Shown here: positions 128 through 41,199 of the stretch, piece after piece
Position numbering within the stretch: position 1 is the stretch's first letter
How the letters are laid out: each line of letters opens with the position of its first letter
Virus record (IMG/VR): IMGVR_UViG_3300027509_000006
Location: 1-41,199 of that record
Source: a virus
Direction: 5' to 3' (one strand)
DNA length: 41,199 bases
Notes under the pieces: model-generated
What the model saw: only the letters and a program-made list of their open reading frames with translations
The model's database searches: none
Told to the model about the DNA's origin: nothing
Program-made: the position numbers and the translations under genes

Positions 128-412
128 AATCAAACTCAGTTAATTAACGAAAATGAAAACCGCGCCCGTGGTTCCATGTGCCTGAGAGGCAGCCTTATCC
201 TTCGTTTCAGCTTTTACATATCTGGAAATCAATATCCTACATATTCAGTTCAGGATAATCGATTTCTGATCATAGCCGACCTGATCCAAGTCCATTGTGC
301 TGACTATTTTCTCATTAATAGATAGAAAATCTATCCCGGAGAAAAGACCCAGCTGCCGTATATATAATTGAATTTTCTTTTTTTTTCTAAGAATCAGAAT
401 AAGATAGAATCG

Positions 413-601
413 GTGGACTTTTGGACTTTAACTTTTAATTTTCTGATTATCAGCCACTTACGCAGTCCAACAAAAGTCCACATCAGTCCAAAAGTCCAAA
501 AGTCCAAATGGACTGAAATCAGTCCACATCAGTCCACCCCAAGTGGACTGCGTAACTCCTTGATTATCAGTACCAAAAAGTGTTAAAGTCCAAAAGTCCA
601 C
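413..601. repeat. Dense AGTCCA/TGGACT hexamer array with nested inverted repeats
   Basis: There are 9 forward AGTCCA copies (464, 475, 485, 493, 501, 521, 531, 587, 595) and 4 reverse TGGACT copies (414, 422, 509, 544). A perfect 17-bp inverted repeat pairs 413..429 with 585..601. A perfect 12-bp inverted repeat pairs 458..469 with 544..555. TGATTATCAG is a direct repeat at 444..453 and 561..570. Confidence 0.9.
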
Positions 602-689
602 TTGAAATGCGAATTCTGGTCGGTAGCTGGTGAAAGTTTCACGTCCTAGCAATAACTGCTGAAATGAGACTTTTTGAGACAAAAAAGCA

Positions 690-1133
690 ATGAAAGTCAT
701 TATTCAGAGATACAAGTCAGATGAAAACCAGACCACTGGAACTCTCACAGTAGTGGATGATAATGGCTGGCCAGTGTTCACCTGTCCTTGCATAGAGCGA
801 GGTGATAGAAATAATCAGAGGAATAATTCATCCATCCCTCCAGGATCCTATCCTCTTGTCTTGGAATATTCACCCAGATTCAATATGGATCTTTTCGAAA
901 TCAAGGATGTGCCTGGCAGATCTGAGTGCAAGATTCATTCTTCTAATTTCTGGCACGAGCTGGAAGGGTGCATTGCTCCAGGAGCCTACCTGAAAAACCT
1001 TGACGGTGATAAGTATCTGGATGTCGCTGCTTCACGTCGAGCGCTTAATGACTTTCACAGAGTAATGGGTGACGTGACAGTCACCACTATACTGATTCTC
1101 AATCCTTACAATTATAGTCCTATTCCCAGCTGA
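690..1133 (+). CDS. DUF5675-like protein, possible cell-wall enzyme/endolysin
   Basis: 147-aa ATG ORF. The pattern GTL...C..IER....IPPGSYPL..EYSPRF....IKDVPGR..CKIHSSN....LEGCIAPG matches my recollection of the DUF5675 family. The family was not searched. The lysis role is inferred from the adjacent membrane protein. Confidence 0.55.
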   Translation: MKVIIQRYKSDENQTTGTLTVVDDNGWPVFTCPCIERGDRNNQRNNSSIPPGSYPLVLEYSPRFNMDLFEIKDVPGRSECKIHSSNFWHELEGCIAPGAYLKNLDGDKYLDVAASRRALNDFHRVMGDVTVTTILILNPYNYSPIPS

Positions 1134-8179: not shown

Positions 8180-9760
8180 ATGAAAAGCATTTCAACAGCA
8201 CTACTTTTATTGCTAACATTAATCAGCTCAGCAACAACTTATTATGTATCAGACTCAGGAGACGATACAAATGACGGACTCACACTAGCAACAGCATTCG
8301 CTACACTGTCACAATCATCAAGCGTAGCAACTAGTGGAGATGATGTAATAGTATCAGGAGCGCACACTATCACTGCTGCTGTAAATTATGTAGATGGAGT
8401 TGATCTGACAGGAAGTGGAGCAACAACGGTAACTGTAAATATCTCAGGTGACTGGCAGTATGGAATAGGATTATCAACGATAATAGATACAACTACAGTA
8501 GGGAATACTGTATCAAATATAACATTTAAGGGTGGAGGTACTCAGTGGGGGTGTTTAGCATGGAGAGGTAGAAATAACATAGTGATAGATAACTGTATAT
8601 TCAACGATTTCAGAGGTAACGTTAATCAAGGATTTGGTGACTACACTGGATTAAATACGTACCCAGTAAACTTTGTCACGGGCCATGTCATATCTAACTG
8701 CACATTCAATACCTGCACAGAATTAACGTTAGGAGGATGGCATTCGGGATGTATCAACTACGGAGATACAGACGGTATGGAAATGTTCAACAACACATTC
8801 AATTTTGATAAGGTGAACGGTCAGAACGGTTATGCATTCAAGCACGGTCAGAACGGCTACAATAAGAACACACTGATTAGGAACAACTTCGCATACAAAC
8901 CACCGTCGAACAACCTTACTAATAACTGGAACTTCATAGTAGAGCTGTGGTTCGATTTGGGAGGTACGGTGATCAGAGACAACTATTTTGAGGGAAGCGT
9001 AGATGCTAATCATGTACTGAACACAACCGGTACATTTGGATTAGACCTGCGAGACAATACATTGGGATATCCATCAAAATATGATGGTTCTGATGGTGCC
9101 AATCTAAATGCAGCAGTGTATCTGGAACATGACATAGAAGACGTCTATATACGAAGAAACTTAATGCTAAATCAAGAGGCTGGTGTACGATTCTCACCTA
9201 GAGATAGCTTAGTGAAGAACATAAATATTCATCACAATATAGCTGTAATAGGAAATAGTGACGGAGATGCACAATGCACGTTTATGGATTGGTCATCACC
9301 ATCAAAGTTTAATTCAGAAGATATCAACGTGATAAATAACACAATACTAGGTACTGATGCTGACTACGGCCTTAACCTACAAATAGATACTTTGAATGGA
9401 GCAGAGATAGTAAATAATATATTCTCAGGATTTGACCAATGTGGAGTAAGATTGCAAGGAGATCAGATGGATGGAGTCAATATAGAAAGTAATGATGTAT
9501 TCAACGTGGCAACAGTTCATATAAATAACGGGACGACACTAACCAACTTCACGGAGATAAACAATATAGGGGTAGACCCATTACTAAGTTCTGTTTATAC
9601 TCCACTTGCATCTTCGCCATTATTGGATGAAGGAAAGACAACAATATATTTAACAGATTATCGCAGAAACCCACTTAACGGACAAGTAGACATAGGAGCA
9701 ATTGAATTGCAATCAGCTATCGCCAACCAGGTGAGGTTTTATTTAAGAATAGAAAATTAA
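8180..9760 (+). CDS. Right-handed parallel beta-helix (pectate-lyase-fold) protein, putative polysaccharide depolymerase/tailspike
   Basis: The start after the hydrophobic leader is YYVSDSGDDTNDGLTLATAFATL. Many beta-helix rung motifs occur (IDNCIF, ISNCTF, FNNTF, IRNNF, IRDNYF, LRDNTL, IHHNIA, INNTIL, VNNIF, IESNDVF). The C-terminal DIGAIEL motif is typical of this fold. Confidence 0.8.
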   Translation: MKSISTALLLLLTLISSATTYYVSDSGDDTNDGLTLATAFATLSQSSSVATSGDDVIVSGAHTITAAVNYVDGVDLTGSGATTVTVNISGDWQYGIGLSTIIDTTTVGNTVSNITFKGGGTQWGCLAWRGRNNIVIDNCIFNDFRGNVNQGFGDYTGLNTYPVNFVTGHVISNCTFNTCTELTLGGWHSGCINYGDTDGMEMFNNTFNFDKVNGQNGYAFKHGQNGYNKNTLIRNNFAYKPPSNNLTNNWNFIVELWFDLGGTVIRDNYFEGSVDANHVLNTTGTFGLDLRDNTLGYPSKYDGSDGANLNAAVYLEHDIEDVYIRRNLMLNQEAGVRFSPRDSLVKNINIHHNIAVIGNSDGDAQCTFMDWSSPSKFNSEDINVINNTILGTDADYGLNLQIDTLNGAEIVNNIFSGFDQCGVRLQGDQMDGVNIESNDVFNVATVHINNGTTLTNFTEINNIGVDPLLSSVYTPLASSPLLDEGKTTIYLTDYRRNPLNGQVDIGAIELQSAIANQVRFYLRIEN

Positions 9761-24822: not shown

Positions 24823-25426
24823 GCTACTCAGCAGCAGACTCTACACAGAGGCAGACTTCAAGGATGCTTCCAGACTGGAACGCCTGGGAATGTATCTCAA
24901 GCAGCCACGCCTACCCATCAGCCCCAGTGATGAGGAATATCTGATGAAGCTGAGACAGGTGTGGATGATCACAGGAGATTCCTTATCTGGCTTTGAGTCG
25001 GTGCGGAAAGTGAGAGTGATCCATCCGGACATGAAATATGAAACCGCTCAGAAGTACATAGGAGAAGCGGAGTCATTATTCGGATCCATCATCTCCAGGA
25101 ATAAAGATATGGCGAGAGCCGTACTGATAGACAAAGCCAGAGACCTCTATGAAAAAGGGATCAATGGTGTTACTGGGACTCGTGAGATTATTGACAAGGA
25201 TGGCATATTGACAGAAGTGGAAGTGGAACTGGCTCCTATAGACCTCAAGCTCGCCAAAGAAGCGCTCACCCTCATAGGAAAATGGGAACTGGACAGACCA
25301 GATGATCAGGAAGACATTCTCAAGGATCTCCAGCTACCGGATATAAGTTTCACCACTGATCCGGGTGCACTGGCTGAGGACATAGAATTCAAGGAAGTAA
25401 GTGAGGACACTGATGAAGAAGAGTAA
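24779..25426 (+). CDS. Putative small terminase subunit
   Basis: 215 aa, immediately upstream of and overlapping the large terminase. It has an acidic C-terminus. The call is positional. Confidence 0.45.
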   Translation: MSKKPSKELTKKDAKLLSSRLYTEADFKDASRLERLGMYLKQPRLPISPSDEEYLMKLRQVWMITGDSLSGFESVRKVRVIHPDMKYETAQKYIGEAESLFGSIISRNKDMARAVLIDKARDLYEKGINGVTGTREIIDKDGILTEVEVELAPIDLKLAKEALTLIGKWELDRPDDQEDILKDLQLPDISFTTDPGALAEDIEFKEVSEDTDEEE

Positions 25427-26873
25427 GTCCGTATACGTGAATCCCGTACAGGATAAGTTCTTGCAAGCACCTCAGCAAGATAAAACCTTCGTAGGTGGTA
25501 GAGGTGTGGGCAAGTCCTCACTGATAGGCTTCAGCTCCTACCTCAGCGTGAACCACTTACCCAGAGCCAAGCAGTTTTTTGTATCCACGACCTACAACCA
25601 GATCCTGACCAAGACGATGCCAGCCATCGAGGCGATGTGGCAGAGTTTTGGCCTGAAGGAATGGCAATCAGAAAAGATTCCTGGACACTACATCGTGGGC
25701 AGGCGACCACCTAAGAACTGGACCCGGCCCTACAGTCCACCGAGACGCTTTGATAATGTGATCAGCTTCTGGAATGGCTACTGTATAGAATTCCTATCCA
25801 TGGATAGACCGGATCACCAGAGAGGTGGATCCTACGATGGAGGCTTCGGTGATGAGATAAATCTGGTGAAGAAAGAGCATATCAATAAAGTGCTGCTCCC
25901 ATCCATCAGAGGCAACCGCCACAAGTACACCAGCCATCTCCATCAGCAATTCAGTAAGTTCTGCTCCATGCCCTGGAAGCGCTCCCAGTACTGGGTGCTG
26001 GAATACGCAGAGAAAATGAATCTGCATCCTGATGAATATTACTACCAGGAAGCCACGGCCTATGATAATATCGAGGTGCTGGGTGAGAAAGGAATAGAAC
26101 GTCTCCGGAGAGAATTGACCTATCTGGAATTTCAGGTGGAGGTGATGAATATGAGAATCACCAGACAGCCGGAAGGCTTTTATCATGCTTTCTCAGAAGA
26201 TAAGCACGGCTACCAGCCAAAGTATAATTATGGTGATTCTAACAGAGGCATCATCACCAGAGGCACTGCTGACATGGATCCCAAGCAGCCGATGGACATC
26301 TCTCTGGATTTCTCTGGATGGATCAATTGCATGACGGTGTACCAGTCTTCAGGCAAGGAGGAAAAAATGGTCGATGCCTTATTCGTCAAAGATCCCAAAT
26401 CTGTCAAGGATCTCATAGATGATTACTGTAACAAGTACGTAGACCACAAGAATAAGACCGTCAGAGTATGGGGAGAGCCCAGAGGCCATGACAAGAATCC
26501 CATGGGCATCACTTTTTTCAATGTCGTGAAAAATCAATTCAGAAAACATGGATGGAATTGCGAGATCAAAGCCCACGCAGGCAGAACAAACAATCACGAA
26601 GACAGATACATCCTCATCAATAACATCTTCGCTGAGGATGACTCCCAGCTCCCCAGGCTTCGCATAAATCAGGAGAACTGCAAGGATCCCATCATCGCTC
26701 TGCAGATTACCCAGGTCACCGCTGACAACAAGAAAAATAAATCCAAGGAGAAAGACCGGACCTTCCCACAGGAGCACGCTCCACACTTCACGGATACCAT
26801 AGACTATTATTTCATGCAGAAATATGGACAGTCCAGGCTCATACTCGGGCTGCCTGGAACTGTGCACTTTTGA
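25413..26873 (+). CDS. terL: Terminase large subunit
   Basis: It has a Walker A-like FVGGRGVGKSS near the N-terminus and a Walker B-like SYDGGFGDEINLV. The length of about 486 aa is typical. ATG 25413 is preferred over GTG 25401. Confidence 0.8.
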   Translation: MKKSKSVYVNPVQDKFLQAPQQDKTFVGGRGVGKSSLIGFSSYLSVNHLPRAKQFFVSTTYNQILTKTMPAIEAMWQSFGLKEWQSEKIPGHYIVGRRPPKNWTRPYSPPRRFDNVISFWNGYCIEFLSMDRPDHQRGGSYDGGFGDEINLVKKEHINKVLLPSIRGNRHKYTSHLHQQFSKFCSMPWKRSQYWVLEYAEKMNLHPDEYYYQEATAYDNIEVLGEKGIERLRRELTYLEFQVEVMNMRITRQPEGFYHAFSEDKHGYQPKYNYGDSNRGIITRGTADMDPKQPMDISLDFSGWINCMTVYQSSGKEEKMVDALFVKDPKSVKDLIDDYCNKYVDHKNKTVRVWGEPRGHDKNPMGITFFNVVKNQFRKHGWNCEIKAHAGRTNNHEDRYILINNIFAEDDSQLPRLRINQENCKDPIIALQITQVTADNKKNKSKEKDRTFPQEHAPHFTDTIDYYFMQKYGQSRLILGLPGTVHF

Positions 26874-29466: not shown

Positions 29467-30507
29467 TTATTTTAAAACTCTTTGTTTCTTTAAAGTTGGT
29501 GCGAGGCCTCCTAGTGACATCGTTATTAAACCAAGCTCAGTCATAGCCCTAATCGCCTGGTCAACATCTGATTTTTCAAAGGAGTTCTTCTTATGTTCTG
29601 ACCAATTTTGAAGGAGAATAAATAAGTCTTTGTCAGTACAGGGATAATTTTGCTCTAATAAAGTTAGGAGTGACGAAAGTAATTCCAGATTTTTATCCTC
29701 GGTAATCCTGTTGATTAAATTGGTTGACTGAATGATGGATGCATCAAATTTTTGAAGCTTATTCAAAACAGATTTACTAATGTTTGTGTTCAGAGCTAAA
29801 TCAAGTGCCTTCTCTGTACCAACGTTATAATAAGTCTGGTATTCTATAATTTGGCGACTAAGGATACTAATCGCATTTGAATAAGGACCGAAATGATAGT
29901 TTTGAAATTTGAAATAATTTTCTTTTGAAAAGTAGTTGAGAAAGAATCCCGATTTTTGAAGACGGACTTTGTTGAATTTAGATAACTTGGATTTAATTAT
30001 CATAAGAATTAAATGACTAGCATTCAATTTAGGCACTCTAGTAACTTGGTTTTTATTAACAACTGAGGAGGGTTCGAAAATTATTATATCAAGTTCATCA
30101 GCAAATTTCAAAACATAACTTACTATAATATCTTTAACGATATTCCATTCTAAACCTCCATTGCCACAACCAAGAGGAGGGATTGCTATAGAATTGATAT
30201 TTAGCTTAGGTAATTCTTCGACCAGAGCATTCATACCTGAATCAATGTATTCATATTTTGACTTTTCTCGCCATTTGTTTTTAGTTGGAACATTAATCAA
30301 AACCTTATCATTTTCTCTTGAAACTAGGACCTTGCCAATTCCAAAAGATCCATTCTTGCATGCTAAAACGTAGCTGTCGTTATTACTAGGAAATCTAGTT
30401 TTAAATTGATAGGCAATTCCCTTTCCCATGAATCCTTCGCAATTCACTGTATTTACCAAGGCGTCAGTCCCAGCCTCAAACATATTTCCAGTTGTTAGCT
30501 TTATCAT
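29467..30507 (-). CDS. darG: DarG-like macrodomain antitoxin (ADP-ribosylglycohydrolase)
   Basis: The N-terminal macrodomain motifs are GNMFEAGTDALVNTVNCEGFMGKGIAYQFKTRFP and IAIPPLGCGNGGLEW. An extra C-terminal domain of about 190 aa is present. The start overlaps the darT stop (ATGA). Confidence 0.8.
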   Translation of the reverse strand: MIKLTTGNMFEAGTDALVNTVNCEGFMGKGIAYQFKTRFPSNNDSYVLACKNGSFGIGKVLVSRENDKVLINVPTKNKWREKSKYEYIDSGMNALVEELPKLNINSIAIPPLGCGNGGLEWNIVKDIIVSYVLKFADELDIIIFEPSSVVNKNQVTRVPKLNASHLILMIIKSKLSKFNKVRLQKSGFFLNYFSKENYFKFQNYHFGPYSNAISILSRQIIEYQTYYNVGTEKALDLALNTNISKSVLNKLQKFDASIIQSTNLINRITEDKNLELLSSLLTLLEQNYPCTDKDLFILLQNWSEHKKNSFEKSDVDQAIRAMTELGLITMSLGGLAPTLKKQRVLK

Positions 30508-31082
30508 TTCTTGAACATAGCTGAATTACAATTAACATAAATTCCTGTTTTTCCTAGCTTAGTAAGCAAATCATCTATCCTTTGCTTATCAGTTCCATTC
30601 TTGCAGTAAATTGCATAAATATCGGTAGAAAACACCGTATTTTCACTCAAACATTCTGCCATACAGCAATTTTTACAGTCTTGATCGCAGTAATCTCTGA
30701 CTCCCATTAAATCCCAATCAATTAGTTCAATGCCCGTTTGAAAAGGATGTAATATGGGTGGGTTCAAAGATAATGGATGTTGCGTAAGAATTTTAAAGTT
30801 ATTTCGTTTTGCAAGTGTCCTTAGAATCGTTAAAAATACAAAAGTGAGACCTTTACAATCTTGCTGGACTTGTCCAGCAAATGGGGTTCCAGCAAAAAAA
30901 TGAAAAGGTACATATCCGTTTAAATTATGTTTCTTTCTGTGAGCGATTATTTTGTCATCTGCAACATCATGAAAGGCAGCGAGATTTCCTCTAGCACTTA
31001 GTCCTTCCTTCAGAATCTGCTCTAGATTATCAAATGCTGTTAAATGAAAAAGTAGCTTTAATTGTTTAGGATGTTTTCCCAT
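30504..31082 (-). CDS. darT: DarT-like DUF4433 DNA ADP-ribosyltransferase toxin
   Basis: 192 aa from ATG 31082. The motifs are LLFHLTAFDNLEQILKEGL, GYVPFHFF, LIDWDLM and CMAECLS (the family AEfLv glutamate motif). The track extension to 31238 overlaps the upstream gene and is rejected. Confidence 0.75.
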   Translation of the reverse strand: MGKHPKQLKLLFHLTAFDNLEQILKEGLSARGNLAAFHDVADDKIIAHRKKHNLNGYVPFHFFAGTPFAGQVQQDCKGLTFVFLTILRTLAKRNNFKILTQHPLSLNPPILHPFQTGIELIDWDLMGVRDYCDQDCKNCCMAECLSENTVFSTDIYAIYCKNGTDKQRIDDLLTKLGKTGIYVNCNSAMFKK

Positions 31083-31104
31083 CGTTATATTTTCAATGTT
31101 GTCC

Positions 31105-32484
31105 CTAATAACTCCCCACCCCCACCATATCCAGCAGCCGCTCATATTGCACGACTTCCACACTATTACGACCCAGTACCGCCTTGTCAGTCGGGAGTTT
31201 TCCACTCTCCAGGGAGCGGATATCCAACTTGTCACCAAGCTGACTGATGAAAGCGATACTGCGATCGTGTATGGGAGATCTAAGATATAATCGTGAGTAA
31301 TTCTTAAGATGTGCCAGTGCCACCTCAGCCTTTTTCAATTCTCCTTGCTGCTGATGATAGATCACCTTGCCTATGAGGAATGGTAGTGTGACATGAATGT
31401 TCTCTCGTGGTACTTTATTCAGATTGTAGTGTAATTTCTTGAGGCTGATTTTCTCACCCAGGCTGATGGCCATGTAGAGCGCATAGACTTGCATCCTGGT
31501 CTTATACGCTGGCTGGCCAGTCTTGTGCACATTCTTCTCTATCCATCGGAACAGCGGCAGTGCCTTGAGGTAATCACCTTGGTGGAGATAGATCTGGAAG
31601 AGCAGCTCGTTGTATCTGTAGACGTGCGACCCCTTAGTCTTCTGTTCTGAGAGAGCTGACAGTATGACCAGCTCGGCCTGAGCCAGATCACGGGCAGCTA
31701 TGTGGACGTCCAGAATATGGAAGGTGAAAATGTTGATTACCATGGAGTGCTGGTATGGAAGAGCTCTGAAATGTTCTATGGCACGATGACAAGTCTCTAT
31801 CTGTGATGGTTTATCGCCATCTATGTAGGCAAGGAAAAAACTGAACTCAAAGTGAATGAGCTGTAATCTTATACTATGCTCCAGATGCGGTTTCATATCG
31901 TGGATTACCCTTTGCATCTGTGTCCTGGATTCCTGAAAAGCTTGTGTGCCATACCTGGAACGGACTACAGCATAATCCCAGTCAAACTCAATTTCCTTAC
32001 GATACAGTTCCAGATGATTCAGAGCCATCTTGTGGAAGGACTCAGCCAGATGGCTCTCTTTTTTCAGGGCATACCTGTTGGAGATTTTTCTGCAAAGCTC
32101 CGCAGAGATATTGTGCATCTGGTAAGTGGTGCTGCGTCTCAGTAATCTTCTGGCTGCGGCTATGATAGCGGACGAAAACCCAAAAATAGACATCAGTGCG
32201 ATGGCTTGAAATTCACGGTGAATACTGGTTTTTTGCCTCTGGAGTGAGTTTCCTCCATCTATATGCGTGAGGGAAACGATAAGTTTGTCATAGAGATGCG
32301 ACTTGGTCTTGACAAAGGATCTTACACTAGGTGAGCTACCATACATCTGCTTAGACATCGCTTCATAAGATTGTCCTGAGGTCAGACCATCGGCTAGCTC
32401 TAGTTCTTTAGGTGTGAGATTATCAGTTCCTTTTTCTCCAAGGTACTTTGAGCAAATCTCAAGTAATTCTCTTACTGGTAGCAT
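31105..32484 (-). CDS. Regulator with an N-terminal LuxR/GerE-type HTH and a long TPR-like alpha-helical repeat domain
   Basis: 459 aa. Residues about 23-68, LTPKELELADGLTSGQSYEAMSKQMYGSSPSVRSFVKTKSHLYDKL, align to the GerE-type HTH consensus. A hydrophobic helix FQAIALMSIFGFSSAIIAAA follows. The remaining 330 aa or so are helical-repeat-like (for example YNELLFQIYLHQGDYLKALPLF). GC content matches the phage core. Confidence 0.6.
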   Translation of the reverse strand: MLPVRELLEICSKYLGEKGTDNLTPKELELADGLTSGQSYEAMSKQMYGSSPSVRSFVKTKSHLYDKLIVSLTHIDGGNSLQRQKTSIHREFQAIALMSIFGFSSAIIAAARRLLRRSTTYQMHNISAELCRKISNRYALKKESHLAESFHKMALNHLELYRKEIEFDWDYAVVRSRYGTQAFQESRTQMQRVIHDMKPHLEHSIRLQLIHFEFSFFLAYIDGDKPSQIETCHRAIEHFRALPYQHSMVINIFTFHILDVHIAARDLAQAELVILSALSEQKTKGSHVYRYNELLFQIYLHQGDYLKALPLFRWIEKNVHKTGQPAYKTRMQVYALYMAISLGEKISLKKLHYNLNKVPRENIHVTLPFLIGKVIYHQQQGELKKAEVALAHLKNYSRLYLRSPIHDRSIAFISQLGDKLDIRSLESGKLPTDKAVLGRNSVEVVQYERLLDMVGVGSY

Positions 32485-32709: not shown

Positions 32710-33051
32710 CTATTCTACTTTGTCTCTTAACTCTTTCATGGCCTCTGTCATTTTATTTTGATCCTTCAAGAGTCTGATAAGTTCCATATTCATCTCTCTC
32801 AGGTACTTGATCTCTTCATCTTTCTCGGATTTGTAATCTTCAAAAGCCAATACGCCTCCCTCTTCAGGCAACTTATCGACTATGTAATTTTTAGCGTCTG
32901 GGTATTTTTCAAGTATTCTTTCTGTAATGCTGTTAGATAGTTCTTTCCCTGATTCATATCTAGATATTCTAGATGCGCCAACTCCAATAGCAATTGCTAT
33001 GTCCCCTTGACTCTTTTTTATTGACTTCCTAAACTGCTTTAAATCAATCAC
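32710..33051 (-). CDS. cI-like XRE-family repressor (HTH plus coiled coil, no S24 peptidase domain)
   Basis: 113 aa. The HTH is SQGDIAIAIGVGASRISRYESGKE. The C-terminal part EEIKYLREMNMELIRLLKDQNKMTEAMKELRDKVE is coiled-coil-like. It is divergent from the Cro-like gene. Confidence 0.65.
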   Translation of the reverse strand: MIDLKQFRKSIKKSQGDIAIAIGVGASRISRYESGKELSNSITERILEKYPDAKNYIVDKLPEEGGVLAFEDYKSEKDEEIKYLREMNMELIRLLKDQNKMTEAMKELRDKVE

Positions 33052-33152
33052 TTATGAATATGTTATATTTTTAATGCACATATATCGCGCATATATGAAC
33101 AAGTTGTCATATGTTTGTTTTACAATTTGTTACAAAATATAAATTATTAGCG
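33052..33152. promoter_or_regulatory. Divergent promoter/operator region of the lysis-lysogeny switch
   Basis: This is a 101-bp AT-rich gap between divergent HTH genes. TATGTTTG at 33110..33117 matches the TAnnTTTG -7 consensus for rightward transcription. A CATATAT-CGCG-CATATAT direct repeat lies near 33079..33098. Confidence 0.5.
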
Positions 33153-33785: not shown

Positions 33786-34310
33786 ATGATCCGATGGATG
33801 AATGAACAGACTTCCCTTGCCCATGCCACAGCAGCTGCTCTGGTGAGAATGATCTCAGAAGGCAAGACCACAGCCAAGGCCGTGGGCAAGAGCATAGGAC
33901 AATCAGAAGAAAAGATCAGTCATATACTGACTGATGATCAGGAGGCACTTTCTCCAGCCTATCTGGTTCAGCTATTCAGGGACTTTGATCTGTCTCCGGT
34001 ATTCCTACTCACTCAGCAAGGTGAGCCTTCTGTGACTTCAGAAAGAGATGACGACGATGAACAGAACGACCAGCACCATCACACGAGCAGAGTCCTCAAG
34101 GCACTTAATTATGTCATAAGCCAAAACGGCATCAGCTCGTTGCCTGAGTACTACAGACTATTGAGCATCAGCTCCATACAGGAATATGTGCGACTCTGCC
34201 AGGGTCGAGAGACCTTGCCTCAGAAAAGCATACTGGACCTCGCTCAGGTGTACAAGATCAATCCTGTCTACATCTACAATCCCATACCACATACTCCTAT
34301 GTTCCTATGA
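33786..34310 (+). CDS. Early protein with two XRE-like HTH-type segments and an acidic/His-rich linker
   Basis: 174 aa. The segments are SPAYLVQLFRDFDLSPVFLLTQQG and SILDLAQVYKINPVYIYN, which resemble HTH C-terminal helices. The linker is SERDDDDEQNDQHHH. Confidence 0.4.
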   Translation: MIRWMNEQTSLAHATAAALVRMISEGKTTAKAVGKSIGQSEEKISHILTDDQEALSPAYLVQLFRDFDLSPVFLLTQQGEPSVTSERDDDDEQNDQHHHTSRVLKALNYVISQNGISSLPEYYRLLSISSIQEYVRLCQGRETLPQKSILDLAQVYKINPVYIYNPIPHTPMFL

Positions 34311-37300
34311 TTACCAGTGACACATACATAGCACCTGACAAGGTGGAAGAGATCAAGGCGATAGATGACCTGCTGGGCACCATCGAGGGTTTCGTGGAAC
34401 TGAAAAAGAAGGGTGCTGCCTACATAGGTGAGTGTAATAATTGCGGTGATCCCAAAGGCCTGACGGTGACAGTTGGGAAGGGTCTCTATAAGTGTTTCAA
34501 GTGTGGAGATGGTGGCAAGTATCCACTGCAGTATCTCACTGGCCAGAGAGGGATGGAGTACAAGGAATCGCTGATCTATCTGGCAGAGACTTACAATATA
34601 GACATCAGTCCGCCCATAGTCCCGGTCAAGAAAATGTCCAGTAAGAAAAAACAACTCTCATTCCGTGATAGACAATTGCAGGCGTCAGGGATCTCACTAT
34701 CCGCTCAGCAATATGAGGTGACCGATGGCAACACGACCATGGAGCTGGAGAGATACAGAAAAGGAAAGCTGAATCAGTACGGTGAGATAGATCCCACAGG
34801 TGATGACATGATACTGGTGTACAGAACACTGAATGGCAAGACTGTCACCTATAGGGATAAGCGAGGCAAGGAAAAGCAGCTATATAGAGTCAGGCACAAG
34901 TACCCGGAGCAGCACCTGAGTCAGAAGACTGGCCGCCCTATGAAGTATGCGAGTCCCTACGGATCAGGCTCTCACTTATGGTTGCCTGAGTATGTGATCA
35001 GAGCGTATGAGCTGGGCTCCACCTTCGATACACTGTACATCGTGGAAGGTGAGAAGAAAGCAGACAAGCTCTGCTGTCACAAGATGTTATGTGTCGGTAT
35101 CATGGGCATTCATAATCTGGCAAATGAGGACATGCCCTATGTGTTTGAGCAACTGATGCAAGCTTTCAATGTGAAGAATGTCGTATTCCTATTCGACCAG
35201 GACTGGAGAGATCTTTCGATCAAATCTGATAAGCCAGTTGACATGAGACCGAGAAGTTTCTGCAAAGCGGCTACCCGATTCAGATCCTATTTCTATTCCT
35301 TCCTGGTAAGTGGTGAATTCAATTTCAAGATTTTCATAGGTACACATAAGGCCGAGGCTGATCAGAAAGGCATAGACGATTTCCTCGTCCCGAATAAAGG
35401 CAAGGAAAAAGAAATTCTGGATGATCTGAAAACTGCAGTCACTGGACCGGGTCACACAACTGACCAGTGGGAGCTCTACGATGTGACTGAGATTTCTGAC
35501 TATGCGATGAAGGAAATCTGGAAGATCCACAATGAAGTGGCTTTCCTGAAACATTACAAGGCTGAGCTGAAGGATCTGAGAGAATTCAAGCTGGGCAAGA
35601 TCAGGAGAAAGTACAATGAAGAGGAAGAGAAATTTGAGTTGGCTCAGAAGGTGCTACCCTCAGAGCAGTACTGGATCAAGTCTTATGACAAGCATGATAA
35701 TCTGAAACTGACCTTTGACTGGATTCAGATCGAGAACTTTTTCAAGAATAGAGGGATAGGCATTCACGAGCAGTCTCCGGAGGACATCTGGCATCTCCAT
35801 GTGGAGAGCAGCAGCAATATGATCAGAAAGGTCACGCCACGATATGTGCAGTCCTACCTGATAGAATATTCCAAGCAGCTGGAGGATCTATCTATGGAGA
35901 TTTCAAGATTCATCAAGGCTGGTATTTCCAGATATCTGTCACCAGTCCAGATGAATCACTTGCTGCCCATAGATATGAGACTGAGACCAGCTCAGCGTGA
36001 GATTATGACTCTCTTATTCAAAGATAAAGTGGTGGAAATCACCAAGGATGAAGCTGAAATCAAAAAGCATTATGTGTATCACTACTGGGAAGAGGAAGTG
36101 ATCCAGCACGACTTTGAATTGACAGGGCCTCTATTCACGATGGAGAAGAAGGATGGCAGTACTGGCTTTGATTTTGAGATGACAGCGCTGGGCAAGGAAT
36201 CGGAGATCTTGCAATTCTTATATAATACCTCCTGTACTTTCTGGAGAAAGAAAGCCGCTTCAGTTCATAAAAAGAATTTACCAGCCAGGTGGGTGCAGAA
36301 TCATTCCATCTCCAATGAAGCAGCCGGAGTGACTGAGGACGAAATCCAGGCCACAAATATGCATCTACTGGCCAAGATGGTGGCTTTCGGGTACCTCCTC
36401 CACGACTATGAGGATGTCAGTAATACCAAGGCCATCATATGTATGGATCTCAAAGACTCTGAGCGAGGCGCAGCTGAGGGTGGAACTGGTAAAAGCATAT
36501 TCAGTTTCATGGCAAAGCACCTGGTCAAGCTATTCGATATAGATGCCGGAGCGAAGGATCTGATGGCTAAGGATCCGTTCATGTTTGAAGGTGTGGATGA
36601 GAACACCAGGATAATAGTCCTGGATGATGCCAGGAGTGACCTGGACTTTCAAGGAATGTTTTCCAAGATCACCAATGGCGTGAAGGTGAAGCGGAAAGGT
36701 AAGACCACCGTAAGAGCCGGAATGAAGAAATTCATCATCAATCTGAATGGAATGCTTAGGGGATCCAGCAACTCATTCATCAGGCGTCAGTTCTTGCTGG
36801 GCTTCACTGACTACTATAATGAGAAGCGGACCCCATATGATGAATTCGGTCACAACTTATTCAGCGAGTGGGACAAGAAACAATGGAACCTGTTTTTCAA
36901 TCTGGCCATCCAGTGCAGCCAGCTCTATCTCAAGTATAATCTCAAGTACTCAGTACCCAAAGAGAAGCTGACCAGGAGAAGCCAGAGAAACGAGCTCGGT
37001 GAGAACTTCATAGACTGGGCTGATCTCAAGTATGATGAGGAAGGAGTCTGGAGAAACAAGTGCATGAATAAGATGATGCTGATGGAAAGTTTTCTTAAGG
37101 AATACCCCAATCAGCGCAAGTACATGACAGTAGCCAAGATCAAGGAAAAACTCATCATCTATGCCAAGTACAGAAAGCTGGACTTCAACATAACCAAGGA
37201 CGGTGAGCGGATCAAGAGTAATGGAAAAGAATACCTCTGCCTGAGCGATGAGAAATTCAATCCGTCTCAGGACATGGCAAAGAAGATAGATAACGAAGGA

Positions 37301-37327
37301 GATTTTTTCAATAGAACGGATATATAA
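34307..37327 (+). CDS. Primase-helicase fusion (CHC2-like zinc finger, TOPRIM, P-loop NTPase)
   Basis: 1006 aa. The zinc finger is CNNCGDPKGLTVTVGKGLYKCFKCGDGG. The TOPRIM motifs are LYIVEGEKKADKL and VVFLFDQDW. Walker A is EGGTGKS, and Walker B-like is RIIVLDDA. Confidence 0.8.
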   Translation: MITSDTYIAPDKVEEIKAIDDLLGTIEGFVELKKKGAAYIGECNNCGDPKGLTVTVGKGLYKCFKCGDGGKYPLQYLTGQRGMEYKESLIYLAETYNIDISPPIVPVKKMSSKKKQLSFRDRQLQASGISLSAQQYEVTDGNTTMELERYRKGKLNQYGEIDPTGDDMILVYRTLNGKTVTYRDKRGKEKQLYRVRHKYPEQHLSQKTGRPMKYASPYGSGSHLWLPEYVIRAYELGSTFDTLYIVEGEKKADKLCCHKMLCVGIMGIHNLANEDMPYVFEQLMQAFNVKNVVFLFDQDWRDLSIKSDKPVDMRPRSFCKAATRFRSYFYSFLVSGEFNFKIFIGTHKAEADQKGIDDFLVPNKGKEKEILDDLKTAVTGPGHTTDQWELYDVTEISDYAMKEIWKIHNEVAFLKHYKAELKDLREFKLGKIRRKYNEEEEKFELAQKVLPSEQYWIKSYDKHDNLKLTFDWIQIENFFKNRGIGIHEQSPEDIWHLHVESSSNMIRKVTPRYVQSYLIEYSKQLEDLSMEISRFIKAGISRYLSPVQMNHLLPIDMRLRPAQREIMTLLFKDKVVEITKDEAEIKKHYVYHYWEEEVIQHDFELTGPLFTMEKKDGSTGFDFEMTALGKESEILQFLYNTSCTFWRKKAASVHKKNLPARWVQNHSISNEAAGVTEDEIQATNMHLLAKMVAFGYLLHDYEDVSNTKAIICMDLKDSERGAAEGGTGKSIFSFMAKHLVKLFDIDAGAKDLMAKDPFMFEGVDENTRIIVLDDARSDLDFQGMFSKITNGVKVKRKGKTTVRAGMKKFIINLNGMLRGSSNSFIRRQFLLGFTDYYNEKRTPYDEFGHNLFSEWDKKQWNLFFNLAIQCSQLYLKYNLKYSVPKEKLTRRSQRNELGENFIDWADLKYDEEGVWRNKCMNKMMLMESFLKEYPNQRKYMTVAKIKEKLIIYAKYRKLDFNITKDGERIKSNGKEYLCLSDEKFNPSQDMAKKIDNEGDFFNRTDI

Positions 37328-38206: not shown

Positions 38207-38577
38207 GATTACAATATCCACTCATCTATCCAGATGGTATGAGAGCAAACAGAATGCCTAAGAAAATGAATCCTAAGAAAGATTATAAGGAAGCCATAGG
38301 AGCGCTGGTCAAAGAACTTCGTCTGGCCAGGGCCAAAGATTCTAGACTACTATCCAATGTCCACCTGAATGCAAGTGGATCTGTGTACGGCAGTAATCCA
38401 GGTGGCCCAGGTGTAATGCTAGAATTCAAGAAAGGGAAGACTCGTTATCACTGGCTACTGGATCAGTACGACAGGACAGCTGACAACATCTATGCGATGT
38501 CCAAGCTGGTACACAACTGGAGAATGTTTCTGGACTCAGGCGTGAGGAGCTGGCGAGAGAAAATGGAGGTGGTATGA
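38203..38577 (+). CDS. Hypothetical protein
   Basis: ATG 38203 overlaps the upstream stop (ATGA), so the track start at 38131 is rejected. Confidence 0.5.
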   Translation: MRLQYPLIYPDGMRANRMPKKMNPKKDYKEAIGALVKELRLARAKDSRLLSNVHLNASGSVYGSNPGGPGVMLEFKKGKTRYHWLLDQYDRTADNIYAMSKLVHNWRMFLDSGVRSWREKMEVV

Positions 38578-39215
38578 ATGGACGAATGTGGACAGAATCG
38601 GAGATCTCTCGATTGATAGAAATATACCCGGATCATACTGGTAAAGAAGTCGCTGAGAAATTAGGTCGAAAACTTACCAGTGTCTACGGGAAAGCTAAGA
38701 CACTAGGTCTATGCAAAAGCGAGGAGTTTAAGAGGTCAGATAAGTCTGGCCGATTAAACAAGACAAACCAAGCAGGGATAGGTCACAGATTTAAAAAAGG
38801 TCATACGCCAGCGAACAAAGGAAGAAAGGTTTCATCAGAGACCAGAGCTAGAATGGCTAAGACTTTCTTTAAGAAAGGTCAACTGCCACACAATACGCTA
38901 TCAGATGGAGCTATCAGGACAAGAAGAGATAGAAGAGGGATTCCATATCAATTTATCAGGATCAGTGCAGGAAAGTGGGAGCATCTACATAGACACATGT
39001 ACAGGACTAAAATCGGAGAAATACCAGATATGATGGTAGTGATTTTCAAAGATGGCAACACGATGAACTGCACAGTTGAAAACTTAGGATTAATCACTAA
39101 GCAGCAGAATATGAAACGAAATACTATACATCAGTACCCGGAGGATGTGAAACAAGGGATCCGGGCATTATCCAAATTAAAAAAGAAAATCAAGCATTAT
39201 GAAAAACAAGATTGA
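38574..39215 (+). CDS. HNH-like protein with a SANT/Myb-like N-terminal HTH; the first catalytic His is replaced
   Basis: The N-terminus is WTESEISRLIEIYPDHTGKEVAEKLGRKLTSVYGKAKTLGL. The C-terminus WEHLHRHMYRTKIGEIPDMMVVIFKDGNTMNCTVENLGLITKQQN follows the phage HNH pattern, but it has IFKDGN where H-x-D-G-N is expected. Confidence 0.6.
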   Translation: MNGRMWTESEISRLIEIYPDHTGKEVAEKLGRKLTSVYGKAKTLGLCKSEEFKRSDKSGRLNKTNQAGIGHRFKKGHTPANKGRKVSSETRARMAKTFFKKGQLPHNTLSDGAIRTRRDRRGIPYQFIRISAGKWEHLHRHMYRTKIGEIPDMMVVIFKDGNTMNCTVENLGLITKQQNMKRNTIHQYPEDVKQGIRALSKLKKKIKHYEKQD

Positions 39216-39839: not shown

Positions 39840-40925
39840 TTAGCACGCATCCGCGTCGCCTATATTCGTATCACTCTCTATTTTCTCATCAAAGAAGAAG
39901 CTCGTCTCTTTGTCTATTTTTCTACGTGTGATTTTCCCATAAGTCTTGATCAACATTGGAATTGTGATTCCCATCATCTCTGCTGTTGTACCTTCAGAAA
40001 CACCATTGAGAAGACAGATTGTAGTTGCGAACGTATGCCTTGCCAGATGAGTATGCAGCGTTTTCTCAATTCCGCAGATGTCTTGGATCTCTTTCAAATA
40101 GGCGTTCATTCTCGAATTTGATTTGATAGGTAACTGTCTATCATAGCGTTCCCATATCTCCAGTGCCTTTGGGAACATAGGAAGTACAGCCTTTTTCTTA
40201 GTCTTATTTCGTATTGAATCGATCCATATCCTCTTTGTTTTGATGTCTATTTTGGTTTCAAAAGTGTGAAGTCTGCTATATTCCATACCTGTATAGCACT
40301 GAAATATGAATACATCCCTGATTCTGGCTATTCTATGGTGTAGATTTTTGTTTTCGATAGCATGGAGTTCTTGCTCATTGAGATAGATGATATCCTTCTT
40401 TACTTTTTTGAATTTCATATGCATCATCGGATTGATTCTGATCATATCCTCCTGGATACCGAACTTGAGAAATGAGTCTAACTGATGCATCCTCTTATAG
40501 GCTGAATTGATATTCATTCTAGTAAGGAAGTGTTTATACAAGTCATTGATGAAATCAGGGTCTATCTTATAGAGCGGCACATCAAAATCGCCCAGAATAT
40601 TCTTGAATCCATTATATTTCTCTAATGTCCCATCTGATAGCTTAGGTCGACTTTTGCAGTACCTTTCCACTAGCTCTGACAGAACCAAGGAGTTGTTAGC
40701 ATCTATTTTCCTGTACAATTGCTCGAAAGTAGAACATCCATCCGCGATACGCTTCCACTCTCCTACTAGCTTATTGACATTCGTGTCACCATCCGCATAC
40801 TGTAGCTTCTGATGCCATTTCTTAGGAAATAAGCCTGTAGCACGTACTTTTCGCTTACCTAAGCTGTTGGTGAAACGGACATATAATGATTGATCACGAG
40901 GGAAGATGTAGAATAGAGCTTTCAT
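39840..40925 (-). CDS. int: Tyrosine recombinase / phage integrase
   Basis: 361 aa. The box II-like motif is HTHLARHTFATT, and the candidate catalytic Tyr lies in MLIKTYGKIT. The N-terminal arm-binding-like region is FYIFPRDQSLYVRFTNSLGKRKVRATGL. Confidence 0.85.
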   Translation of the reverse strand: MKALFYIFPRDQSLYVRFTNSLGKRKVRATGLFPKKWHQKLQYADGDTNVNKLVGEWKRIADGCSTFEQLYRKIDANNSLVLSELVERYCKSRPKLSDGTLEKYNGFKNILGDFDVPLYKIDPDFINDLYKHFLTRMNINSAYKRMHQLDSFLKFGIQEDMIRINPMMHMKFKKVKKDIIYLNEQELHAIENKNLHHRIARIRDVFIFQCYTGMEYSRLHTFETKIDIKTKRIWIDSIRNKTKKKAVLPMFPKALEIWERYDRQLPIKSNSRMNAYLKEIQDICGIEKTLHTHLARHTFATTICLLNGVSEGTTAEMMGITIPMLIKTYGKITRRKIDKETSFFFDEKIESDTNIGDADAC

Positions 40926-41072
40926 ACATCAAAGATTAAAATGAAAAAGGTTAGCAATGAATCTAATTTTCAACACTGCTAACCTTTATGCTAACCTTTT
41001 CATCCTGCTTATCCGATTTATCCGATTTAGAGTAAGTTAAATCATCGGATAAACAGGATATTCAGGATGCTG
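40926..41072. promoter_or_regulatory. int-proximal non-coding region with clustered short repeats; candidate attP arm (continues across the circle junction into 1..412)
   Basis: AAGGTTAGCA (40947..40956) is inverted relative to TGCTAACCTT at 40977..40986, and TGCTAACCTT recurs directly at 40989..40998. ATCCGATTT is tandem at 41011..41019 and 41020..41028, with an inverted ATCGGATAA at 41044..41052. TGCTAACC recurs at 54..61. Confidence 0.4.
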
Positions 41073-41199
41073 GCGGAGGAGGAGGGTCCGCGATTTTGTC
41101 TGATAATCAGATAGTTAGGATTAGGTGCTAACCATCCTGCTATCTGTATTCCTTAAGGTCCAAGCCTTCTGTTAGTAATTTACAACATATTACACCGAA
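41073..41199. repeat. Right copy of the 127-bp exact terminal direct repeat
   Basis: Identical to 1..127. The unique genome length is 41,072 bp. Confidence 0.95.

Follow-up and report, generated by a model that had tools for sequence, protein, structure and literature searches.

The window analysed here is a stretch of 41,199 nucleotides (IMG/VR virus record IMGVR_UViG_3300027509_000006) whose last 127 bases repeat the first 127, so that the assembly is circular with a length of 41,072 bp. A dense array of short repeats lies in an 836-bp intergenic region that extends from the start of a tyrosine integrase gene (40925, minus strand) to a DUF5675 gene (690-1133), and in circular order this region adjoins the replication module (Table 1). 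A nucleotide search of GenBank phages with the first 3 kb of the window gave no match. The window phage is a temperate phage of Bacteroidota, and an integrated copy was present on contig k141_182867 of ENA ERZ27241782, which is 133 kb long. Alignment of both junctions (L094 16765-16853; L095 5312) placed the attP crossover core GCGGAGGAGGAGGG at positions 1-14 (= 41073-41086), which correspond to the 3' end of a host tRNA-Ser(TGA). Within about 130 bp of the core (40946-41072 and 15-75) we found the repeats TGCTAACC (four copies), TTATCCGAT (three copies), and CATCCTGCT (two copies), none of them AGTCCA-like, which are likely the arm-type repeats of attP. In the prophage the array is preserved whole, 400 bp inward of the left end (attL); since the core lies elsewhere, the array is not the recombination site.

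The break of the contig coincides with the att core, and the contig end probably reflects branching of the assembly graph between integrated and excised forms, not DNA termini. GC skew changes from plus to minus across the array region, a terminus-type sign without an origin-type minimum that is confounded by module structure and strand. Between the replication genes and the integrase lies an HNH_3 endonuclease gene (PHROG 1891; 38574-39215); at one related locus (L079), the primase-helicase gene and the array have a homologue between them. A low-GC (0.34) accessory region at 28-31 kb holds a DarT (PF14487) and Macro-domain DarG-like (PF01661) pair (29467-31238, minus strand), which is a toxin-antitoxin or anti-phage defence module.

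Table 1. Features of the array, of the putative initiator, and of comparable arrays at other loci
Feature	Position	Strand	Description
Composite iteron array, proposed ori core	413..601	.	13 AGTCCA hexamers in a near-palindromic frame; layout also in 15 other loci
Left outer arm	413..432	-	Iteron pair TGGACTttTGGACT (414-427) with 8-bp spacing, inside a perfect 20-bp inverted repeat
Right outer arm	582..601	+	Iteron pair AGTCCAaaAGTCCA (587-600), mirrors the left arm
Asymmetric central cluster	464..549	+	Nine iterons: 7 AGTCCA on the plus strand; TGGACT at 509 and 544
Exact IHF-consensus site TATCAGCCACTTA	448..460	+	Separated by 20 nt from the outer pair and by 3 nt from the first inner iteron
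Mirror IHF-consensus site AATCAAGGAGTTA	553..565	-	Separated by 3 nt from the inner iteron at 544-549
Candidate unwinding element (putative)	361..400	.	GC 0.15, the most AT-rich 40 bp of the first kilobase; primase-helicase-proximal flank
Primase-helicase, proposed initiator	34307..37327	+	1006 aa; family of ~1000 aa
CHC2 zinc ribbon, DnaG-type	residues 10-101		Pfam
Toprim-like DUF3854	residues 243-304		Pfam
P-loop	Walker A 725-730, Walker B 773-774		Walker residues invariant in alignment
Tyrosine integrase	39840-40925	-	Flanks the non-coding region of the array
G[CT]AC[GA]A-type array, L105	8168-8352
G[CT]AC[GA]A-type array, L166	8108-8360
G[CT]AC[GA]A-type array, L178 (GenBank MT835542.1)	9082-9311

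Anatomy of the hexamer array

The initial annotation had described 13 copies of AGTCCA/TGGACT in 187 bp where about 0.1 would be expected by chance. A hexamer search recovered exactly this number (at 414-600; nine copies on the plus and four on the minus strand), and the expectation came to about 0.13 per 187 bp since the remaining 28 matches are scattered over ~41 kb. Window-wide, 41 copies were counted compared to 24.6 ± 5.3 in shuffled sequences, and none of 100 shuffles reached 41. The outer inverted repeat, given as 17 bp, is perfect as described and measures 20 bp. Inside it, a repeat search recovered the TGATTATCAG direct repeat (444-453 and 561-570), and the perfect 12-bp inverted repeat TTACGCAGTCCA / TGGACTGCGTAA (458-469 / 544-555) was seen on reading the sequence, both as originally reported. 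The spacing of 7-10 bp assigned to the core did not hold, the measured start-to-start distances being 8-13 bp (11, 10, 8, 8, 8, 12, 10, and 13). The centre of the array is iteron-dense with a GC content of 0.40-0.55, and AT-rich DNA was located in the left spacer and in the left flank (361-400); alignment of the relatives revealed a T-rich/TATAT tract on the equivalent flank.

Two ORFs on the array (368-586, plus strand; 458-700, minus strand), already suspected of being spurious, merely translate the repeats (KVQKSK, DFWT), as does a third (394-507, minus strand). Their apparent homologues at other loci were repeat translations too, with varying frame and strand. Gene callers put false genes on the array; the JGI gene calls for two metagenome contigs (L096, L097) include an 80-aa protein at 458-700 (minus strand) that is absent from the ENA annotation of the same DNA. 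Scans for sigma-70 promoters and terminators gave nothing notable, with a promoter model that does not fit Bacteroidota. A MITE or other small transposon is also disfavoured: the window has one copy, no direct repeat flanks 413/601, and the array is syntenic in distant relatives with diverged spacers.

Relatives of the array and the primase-helicase gene

Relatives were identified by an exact search of IMG/VR with AAAGTCCAAAAGTCCA, followed by a gapped outer-pair search of viral and genome collections. The whole layout was found at 15 further loci, which were oriented and aligned with the window (16 loci in all). Their left half reads TGGACTttTGGACT, ~20 nt, WATCAR-N4-TTR, 3 nt, and then the central cluster, with the pattern AGTCCA-N5-AGTCCA-N4-AGTCCA-N2-AGTCCA-N2-AGTCCA, 12-15 nt, AGTCCA-N4-AGTCCA, ~6 nt, TGGACT; the right end is formed by the mirrored WATCAR site and then AGTCCAaaAGTCCA. 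The outer pairs were invariant in the 16-locus alignment, and the motifs and their spacing were kept while the intervening DNA had diverged. Conservation in related phages, which the initial annotation had proposed to examine, was thus evident at 15 loci. As far as sequence comparison can tell, the hexamer, the dimers spaced by 8 bp, and the layout are what is conserved, which supports the proposal of an iteron-like, protein-binding array. Hosts of the genome records are mostly Bacteroidota (Saprospiraceae, Roseivirgaceae), and the named protein homologues came from the same groups.

An all-versus-all comparison of ORFs showed that the primase-helicase is the only widely common family at these loci, being present within the available flank in 12 of 15, compared to 6 for the next family. 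L014 apparently lacked the gene because the fetched piece was too short, and the gene was present in a longer piece (L098). The array was always 3' of the primase-helicase gene, with the polarity of its asymmetric core fixed relative to the gene. The distance from stop codon to array was 77-108 bp in 7 loci; L162 and L180 are further such cases, the latter fetched by protein identity and having 105 bp between the stop codon and its AGTCCA array. Across most relatives having this adjacency, the array begins 77-155 bp after the gene. In the window it lies 4.1 kb downstream, and eight small genes, the integrase, and attP are located between the two. The genes that follow the array vary, being tail genes in the window, a portal homologue in L080, and a DNA methylase and other early genes in L180.

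The association was then approached from the protein side. An alignment was built from 130 homologues of the primase-helicase, and 80 viral loci were fetched on protein similarity alone; a query with the single protein gave no loci. Dense hexamer arrays were detected in 66 of the 80 loci, always downstream and never upstream of the gene. The other 14 had no array at the thresholds used, and 4 of these have less than 1.1 kb of downstream flank. No hexamer cluster was seen in the cultured Polaribacter phage Leef_1, which contributes a partial match of 25% identity.

The primase-helicase combines DnaG-type and Toprim-like primase elements with a P-loop (Table 1), and homologues match the P-loop family DUF5906 at the Walker region. 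Neither the helicase fragment nor the C-terminal fragment of the window protein matched a Pfam family, and PDB sequence and profile searches detected the zinc ribbon only. In two AlphaFold models of the C-terminal ~160 aa (pLDDT 87), the fold is beta-helix-helix-helix-beta-beta, that is, strand-helix-helix-helix-hairpin. All best PDB matches of these models were winged-helix DNA binders at non-significant scores (Foldseek E ≥ 0.4 and ≥ 1.3), and the modelled fold is therefore suggestive of a winged-helix domain. Among GenBank phages, there is one full-length relative of the protein, unannotated. The GenBank record MT835542.1 carries a G[CT]AC[GA]A array.

Two hexamer classes and a shared frame of IHF-type sites

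The hexamer differed between the 66 array loci, being AGTCCA in 6 and G[CT]AC[GA]A in 60, and the two were never found together. G[CT]AC[GA]A reaches 8-16 copies per 300 bp, compared to a background of ~0.6. The 60 loci are highly redundant and represent ~10 lineages at <80% protein identity, mostly from human-gut contigs; the arrays in gut loci usually lie 0.85-1.1 kb after the primase-helicase gene. A strict search for 'H-NN-H ... rc(H)-NN-rc(H)' retrieved L105 and the AGTCCA loci only, as it misses the degenerate arrays of the gut type, and counts of the degenerate motif were used in its place. In L105 and L166 the frame recurs and is built from the other hexamer, as TCGTGCttTCGTGC ... GCACGA cluster ... 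GCACGActGCACGA.

Hexamer type largely follows the protein clusters in a crude UPGMA tree, the exception being L177 (AGTCCA), which groups with the other class; hexamer class is at the same time confounded with habitat and host, the contrast being one of environmental Saprospiraceae-type and human-gut phages. Since the class tracks habitat and host, a host protein could be the binder. Residues that discriminate between the classes showed no clear enrichment in the C-terminal domain (among conserved columns, 3 of 12 vs 0-0.2 elsewhere, with small counts).

The spacers between outer pairs and central cluster carry a second conserved element. Exact, inward-pointing WATCARNNNNTTR sites (WATCAR-N4-TTR), which correspond to the IHF consensus, lie at a distance of 20-21 nt from the outer pair and of 3 nt from the first inner hexamer. 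Left and right spacers each contain such a site in 10 of 16 loci, compared to 0.05 expected. Juxtaposition of the IHF consensus with a hexamer is kept across both hexamer types, and in 6 of 13 gut-type loci the composite of consensus plus hexamer is confined to the array. The window contains 12 matches to the consensus (5.5 expected), three of them in the array and one (33-45) by the attP core. Two further exact matches (32767-32779 and 33042-33054) flank the intergenic region of the lysogeny switch, where repressor/cro-like genes diverge (32710-33051, minus strand; 33111, plus strand). The consensus is defined for proteobacterial IHF, and we infer that a Bacteroidota protein of the HU/IHF family reads it. 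Constant IHF-type sites next to a variable hexamer fit a constant host factor working with a variable specificity encoded by the phage.

A candidate replication origin and its alternatives

Three functions had been offered for the array: a replication origin, a terminase or packaging recognition site, and the control region of a late operon starting at 690. The first is favoured. We consider it probable, judging from sequence comparison, that the array is the replication origin of the phage and is recognised by the phage's own primase-helicase, in view of the fixed order and polarity of the two and the change of hexamer with protein lineage. The AGTCCA iterons would be bound by the primase-helicase, probably through its C-terminal domain, and the two inward-pointing IHF-consensus sites would be bent by a host protein of the IHF/HU type. 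Each bend would fold an outer iteron pair onto the central cluster to give a compact complex on which helicase rings could load. AT-rich DNA may then open nearby, in the spacers and/or at 361-400, and the zinc-ribbon/Toprim part of the same protein would lay the first primers. We propose more tentatively, at somewhat less than even confidence, that this is the founding example of a family-wide origin design in a large clade of Bacteroidota phage primase-helicases (at least 130 homologues, including human-gut ones), in which two bends fold outer pairs onto an asymmetric central array and the hexamer is re-specified between lineages while the scaffold is kept.

Five features match, by analogy, iteron origins that work with their own initiator-helicase: short repeats in two orientations, the position behind the gene, a lineage-specific repeat, putative host-factor bends, and a multifunctional primase-helicase with an extra C-terminal domain. 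The origin of the Staphylococcus aureus pathogenicity islands (SaPI/PICI) with its Rep or PriRep protein is the best-documented precedent. In SaPIs, 6-12 penta- or hexanucleotide iterons lie directly downstream of rep, with at least two per side in opposite orientation; Rep binds them through a winged helix in its C-terminal domain, their sequence is specific to the Rep type, and Rep is a self-loading helicase that in SaPI5 is fused to a primase (PMC9371898). The present array resembles this arrangement in its 13 hexamers, its inverted outer pairs, its place behind the gene, and its lineage-specific hexamer. It differs in that the SaPI ori centre is AT-rich whereas the centre here is iteron-dense, and in the two IHF-consensus sites, none being mentioned in the SaPI ori description (PMC9371898). 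Moreover, the carrier here is a full-size tailed phage of Bacteroidota and not a satellite, the putative ori of the window is displaced 4.1 kb from the gene, and the protein has no detectable homology to solved structures beyond the zinc ribbon.

Other systems share part of the design. The alpha protein of satellite phage P4 unites primase, helicase, and a C-terminal winged-helix origin-binding domain in one polypeptide, and in the P4 origin a short repeat of 8 bp recurs several times, in both orientations. The combination of a primase-helicase polypeptide with short repeats in both orientations is common to P4 and the phages described here, but P4 uses two separate cis regions (ori and crr), its primase has another fold, the present analysis detected no homology to P4 alpha, and an IHF-type frame is not known to us from the P4 origin. 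The array stands apart from both the SaPI and the P4 families in its iteron-dense centre, its pair of IHF-type sites, and its spacing of 8 bp, and homology between the proteins is lacking. In the R6K gamma ori and in pSC101, initiator-binding repeats are combined with IHF bends that join distant sites, and the present array likewise pairs repeats with IHF-type sites. However, plasmid iterons are 17-22 bp long and roughly one helical turn or more apart, and initiators of the RepA/pi type recruit host DnaB, whereas the present array has 6-bp units, frequently at 8-bp distances, and its presumed initiator doubles as the helicase.

The array could serve as a platform for another phage or host protein that does not act in replication, either as a transcriptional switch at a module boundary or as a parS-like partition or silencing centromere, which we regard as unlikely. 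It agrees with such a role that the array always lies at a module boundary, that the hexamer class tracks the host group as well as the protein clade, and that tandem AGTCCA repeats of 8 bp also occur in host-like contigs without a primase-helicase. Short boxes flanking IHF sites are moreover typical of parS and of regulatory nucleoprotein complexes, P1 parS consisting of hexamer and heptamer boxes around an IHF bend. However, there is no second co-occurring protein family, as shown by the ORF comparison described above, the window proteins that were scanned included no ParA, ParB, or comparable family, and a phage that integrates has no need for a partition site. The variable neighbours downstream of the array speak against a switch, and for the same reason control of a late operon starting at 690 is disfavoured. 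A packaging site (pac or cos) bound by the small terminase subunit is a distinctly remoter prospect. Repeated short boxes with an IHF bend are found in lambda cosB and P1 pac, and an HNH endonuclease gene is located 1.2 kb upstream in circular order, but the sole terminase-like gene of the window, a candidate for the large terminase (25401-26873; Terminase_6N E = 0.0024, below threshold), is 15-25 kb away. In L007 and L014 its homologue is found on varying sides of the array and at varying distances from it, and the L180 array is embedded in early genes, with a DNA methylase next in order. Recognition by a terminase, one of the functions initially offered, is accordingly disfavoured. It is very improbable that the adjacent tyrosine integrase uses the hexamers as arm-type or accessory attP sites. 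The array does lie in the attP intergenic region, 560 bp from the integrase start, and IHF-type sites are typical of attP; against this, the 14-bp core in the tRNA-Ser gene has repeats of its own and leaves the array intact inside attL. An integrase gene is missing from the vicinity of most other array loci (that of L092 is 4.5 kb off, beyond the primase-helicase gene), and none of 45 loci fetched by integrase similarity has the array.

A different kind of explanation is that the locus acts through DNA or RNA secondary structure, as a cruciform, an ssDNA hairpin origin of the pRN1 type, or a bidirectional terminator, with iteron binding secondary; this we consider improbable. The initial annotation had suggested extrusion as a cruciform or hairpin, and the folding potential is real, as the single strand of 405-610 folds at -40 kcal/mol (z = -8.1). 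The arms of the window, however, agree at the motifs only. The 10-11 nt beside the outer pairs differ, as does the N4 of the IHF-type sites (CCAC on one arm vs GGAG on the other), and such matching at motifs but not at spacers points to protein sites and not to base pairing. In addition, the central 85 bp are a direct-repeat array that cannot self-pair, the array had no Rfam match, and the outermost inverted repeat of the window (349-358 / 621-630) was reached by 140 of 500 shuffles and is not significant. In four relatives (L077, L020, L014, and L081), the palindrome runs past the outer iteron pairs in lineage-specific sequence, and the added repeat is significant. This outermost repeat was exceeded by 0 of 500 shuffles in L077 and by 15 or fewer in the other three, and an example is CCCCTACCCAAAAAA / TTTTTAGGGTAGGGG, which 0 of 500 shuffles reach. 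These extensions hint that pairing, or a second dimeric site, matters. In pRN1 of Sulfolobus, a cis-essential stem-loop of ~100 nt is required just downstream of the primase-helicase gene orf904 (PMC4234260). Both cases present a palindromic element just 3' of a gene for a multifunctional primase-helicase, but the pRN1 stem-loop is conserved in structure, not in sequence, and has no iterons, whereas here it is the repeated sequence motifs that are conserved.

The array motif was not found in the literature searched. To our knowledge, replication origins are essentially unmapped for phages of Bacteroidota. If the array is an origin read by the primase-helicase, the rule of an outer hexamer pair, an IHF-type site, and a hexamer cluster 3' of a gene for a primase-helicase of ~1000 aa would point to the origin of dozens of uncultured phages, those of the human gut among them, and would yield predicted matching origin-initiator pairs for organisms without replicative genetic tools. 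Shuttle vectors for Saprospiraceae, Flavobacteriia, or Bacteroides might be equipped with such pairs as cassettes. How an initiator-helicase reads very short iterons could also be studied with the two hexamer classes, which would offer two natural specificities on a common scaffold.

The hexamer also occurs in repeats of other kinds. Of the 23 genome matches to the gapped pattern, 15 were set aside as a different object with arms of 8-bp tandem repeats. These loci (L070-L075 and L083-L091; e.g., L073 6976-7186 and L091 3852-4060) consist of inverted arms, (TGGACTNN)n ... (NNAGTCCA)n, lying mostly between convergent genes with no primase-helicase nearby; nine are in one Prevotellaceae MAG and the others in Saprospiraceae and 'Caldilineaceae' bins. 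They share the hexamer and the 8-bp spacing of the phage arrays and are possibly REP- or terminator-like repeats. On a 40-kb viral contig (L015, 2600-2940), two AAAGTCCAAAAGTCCA dimers lie beside runs of TTTGGACATTTG / GAACATTTG repeats, which may represent another type of iteron.
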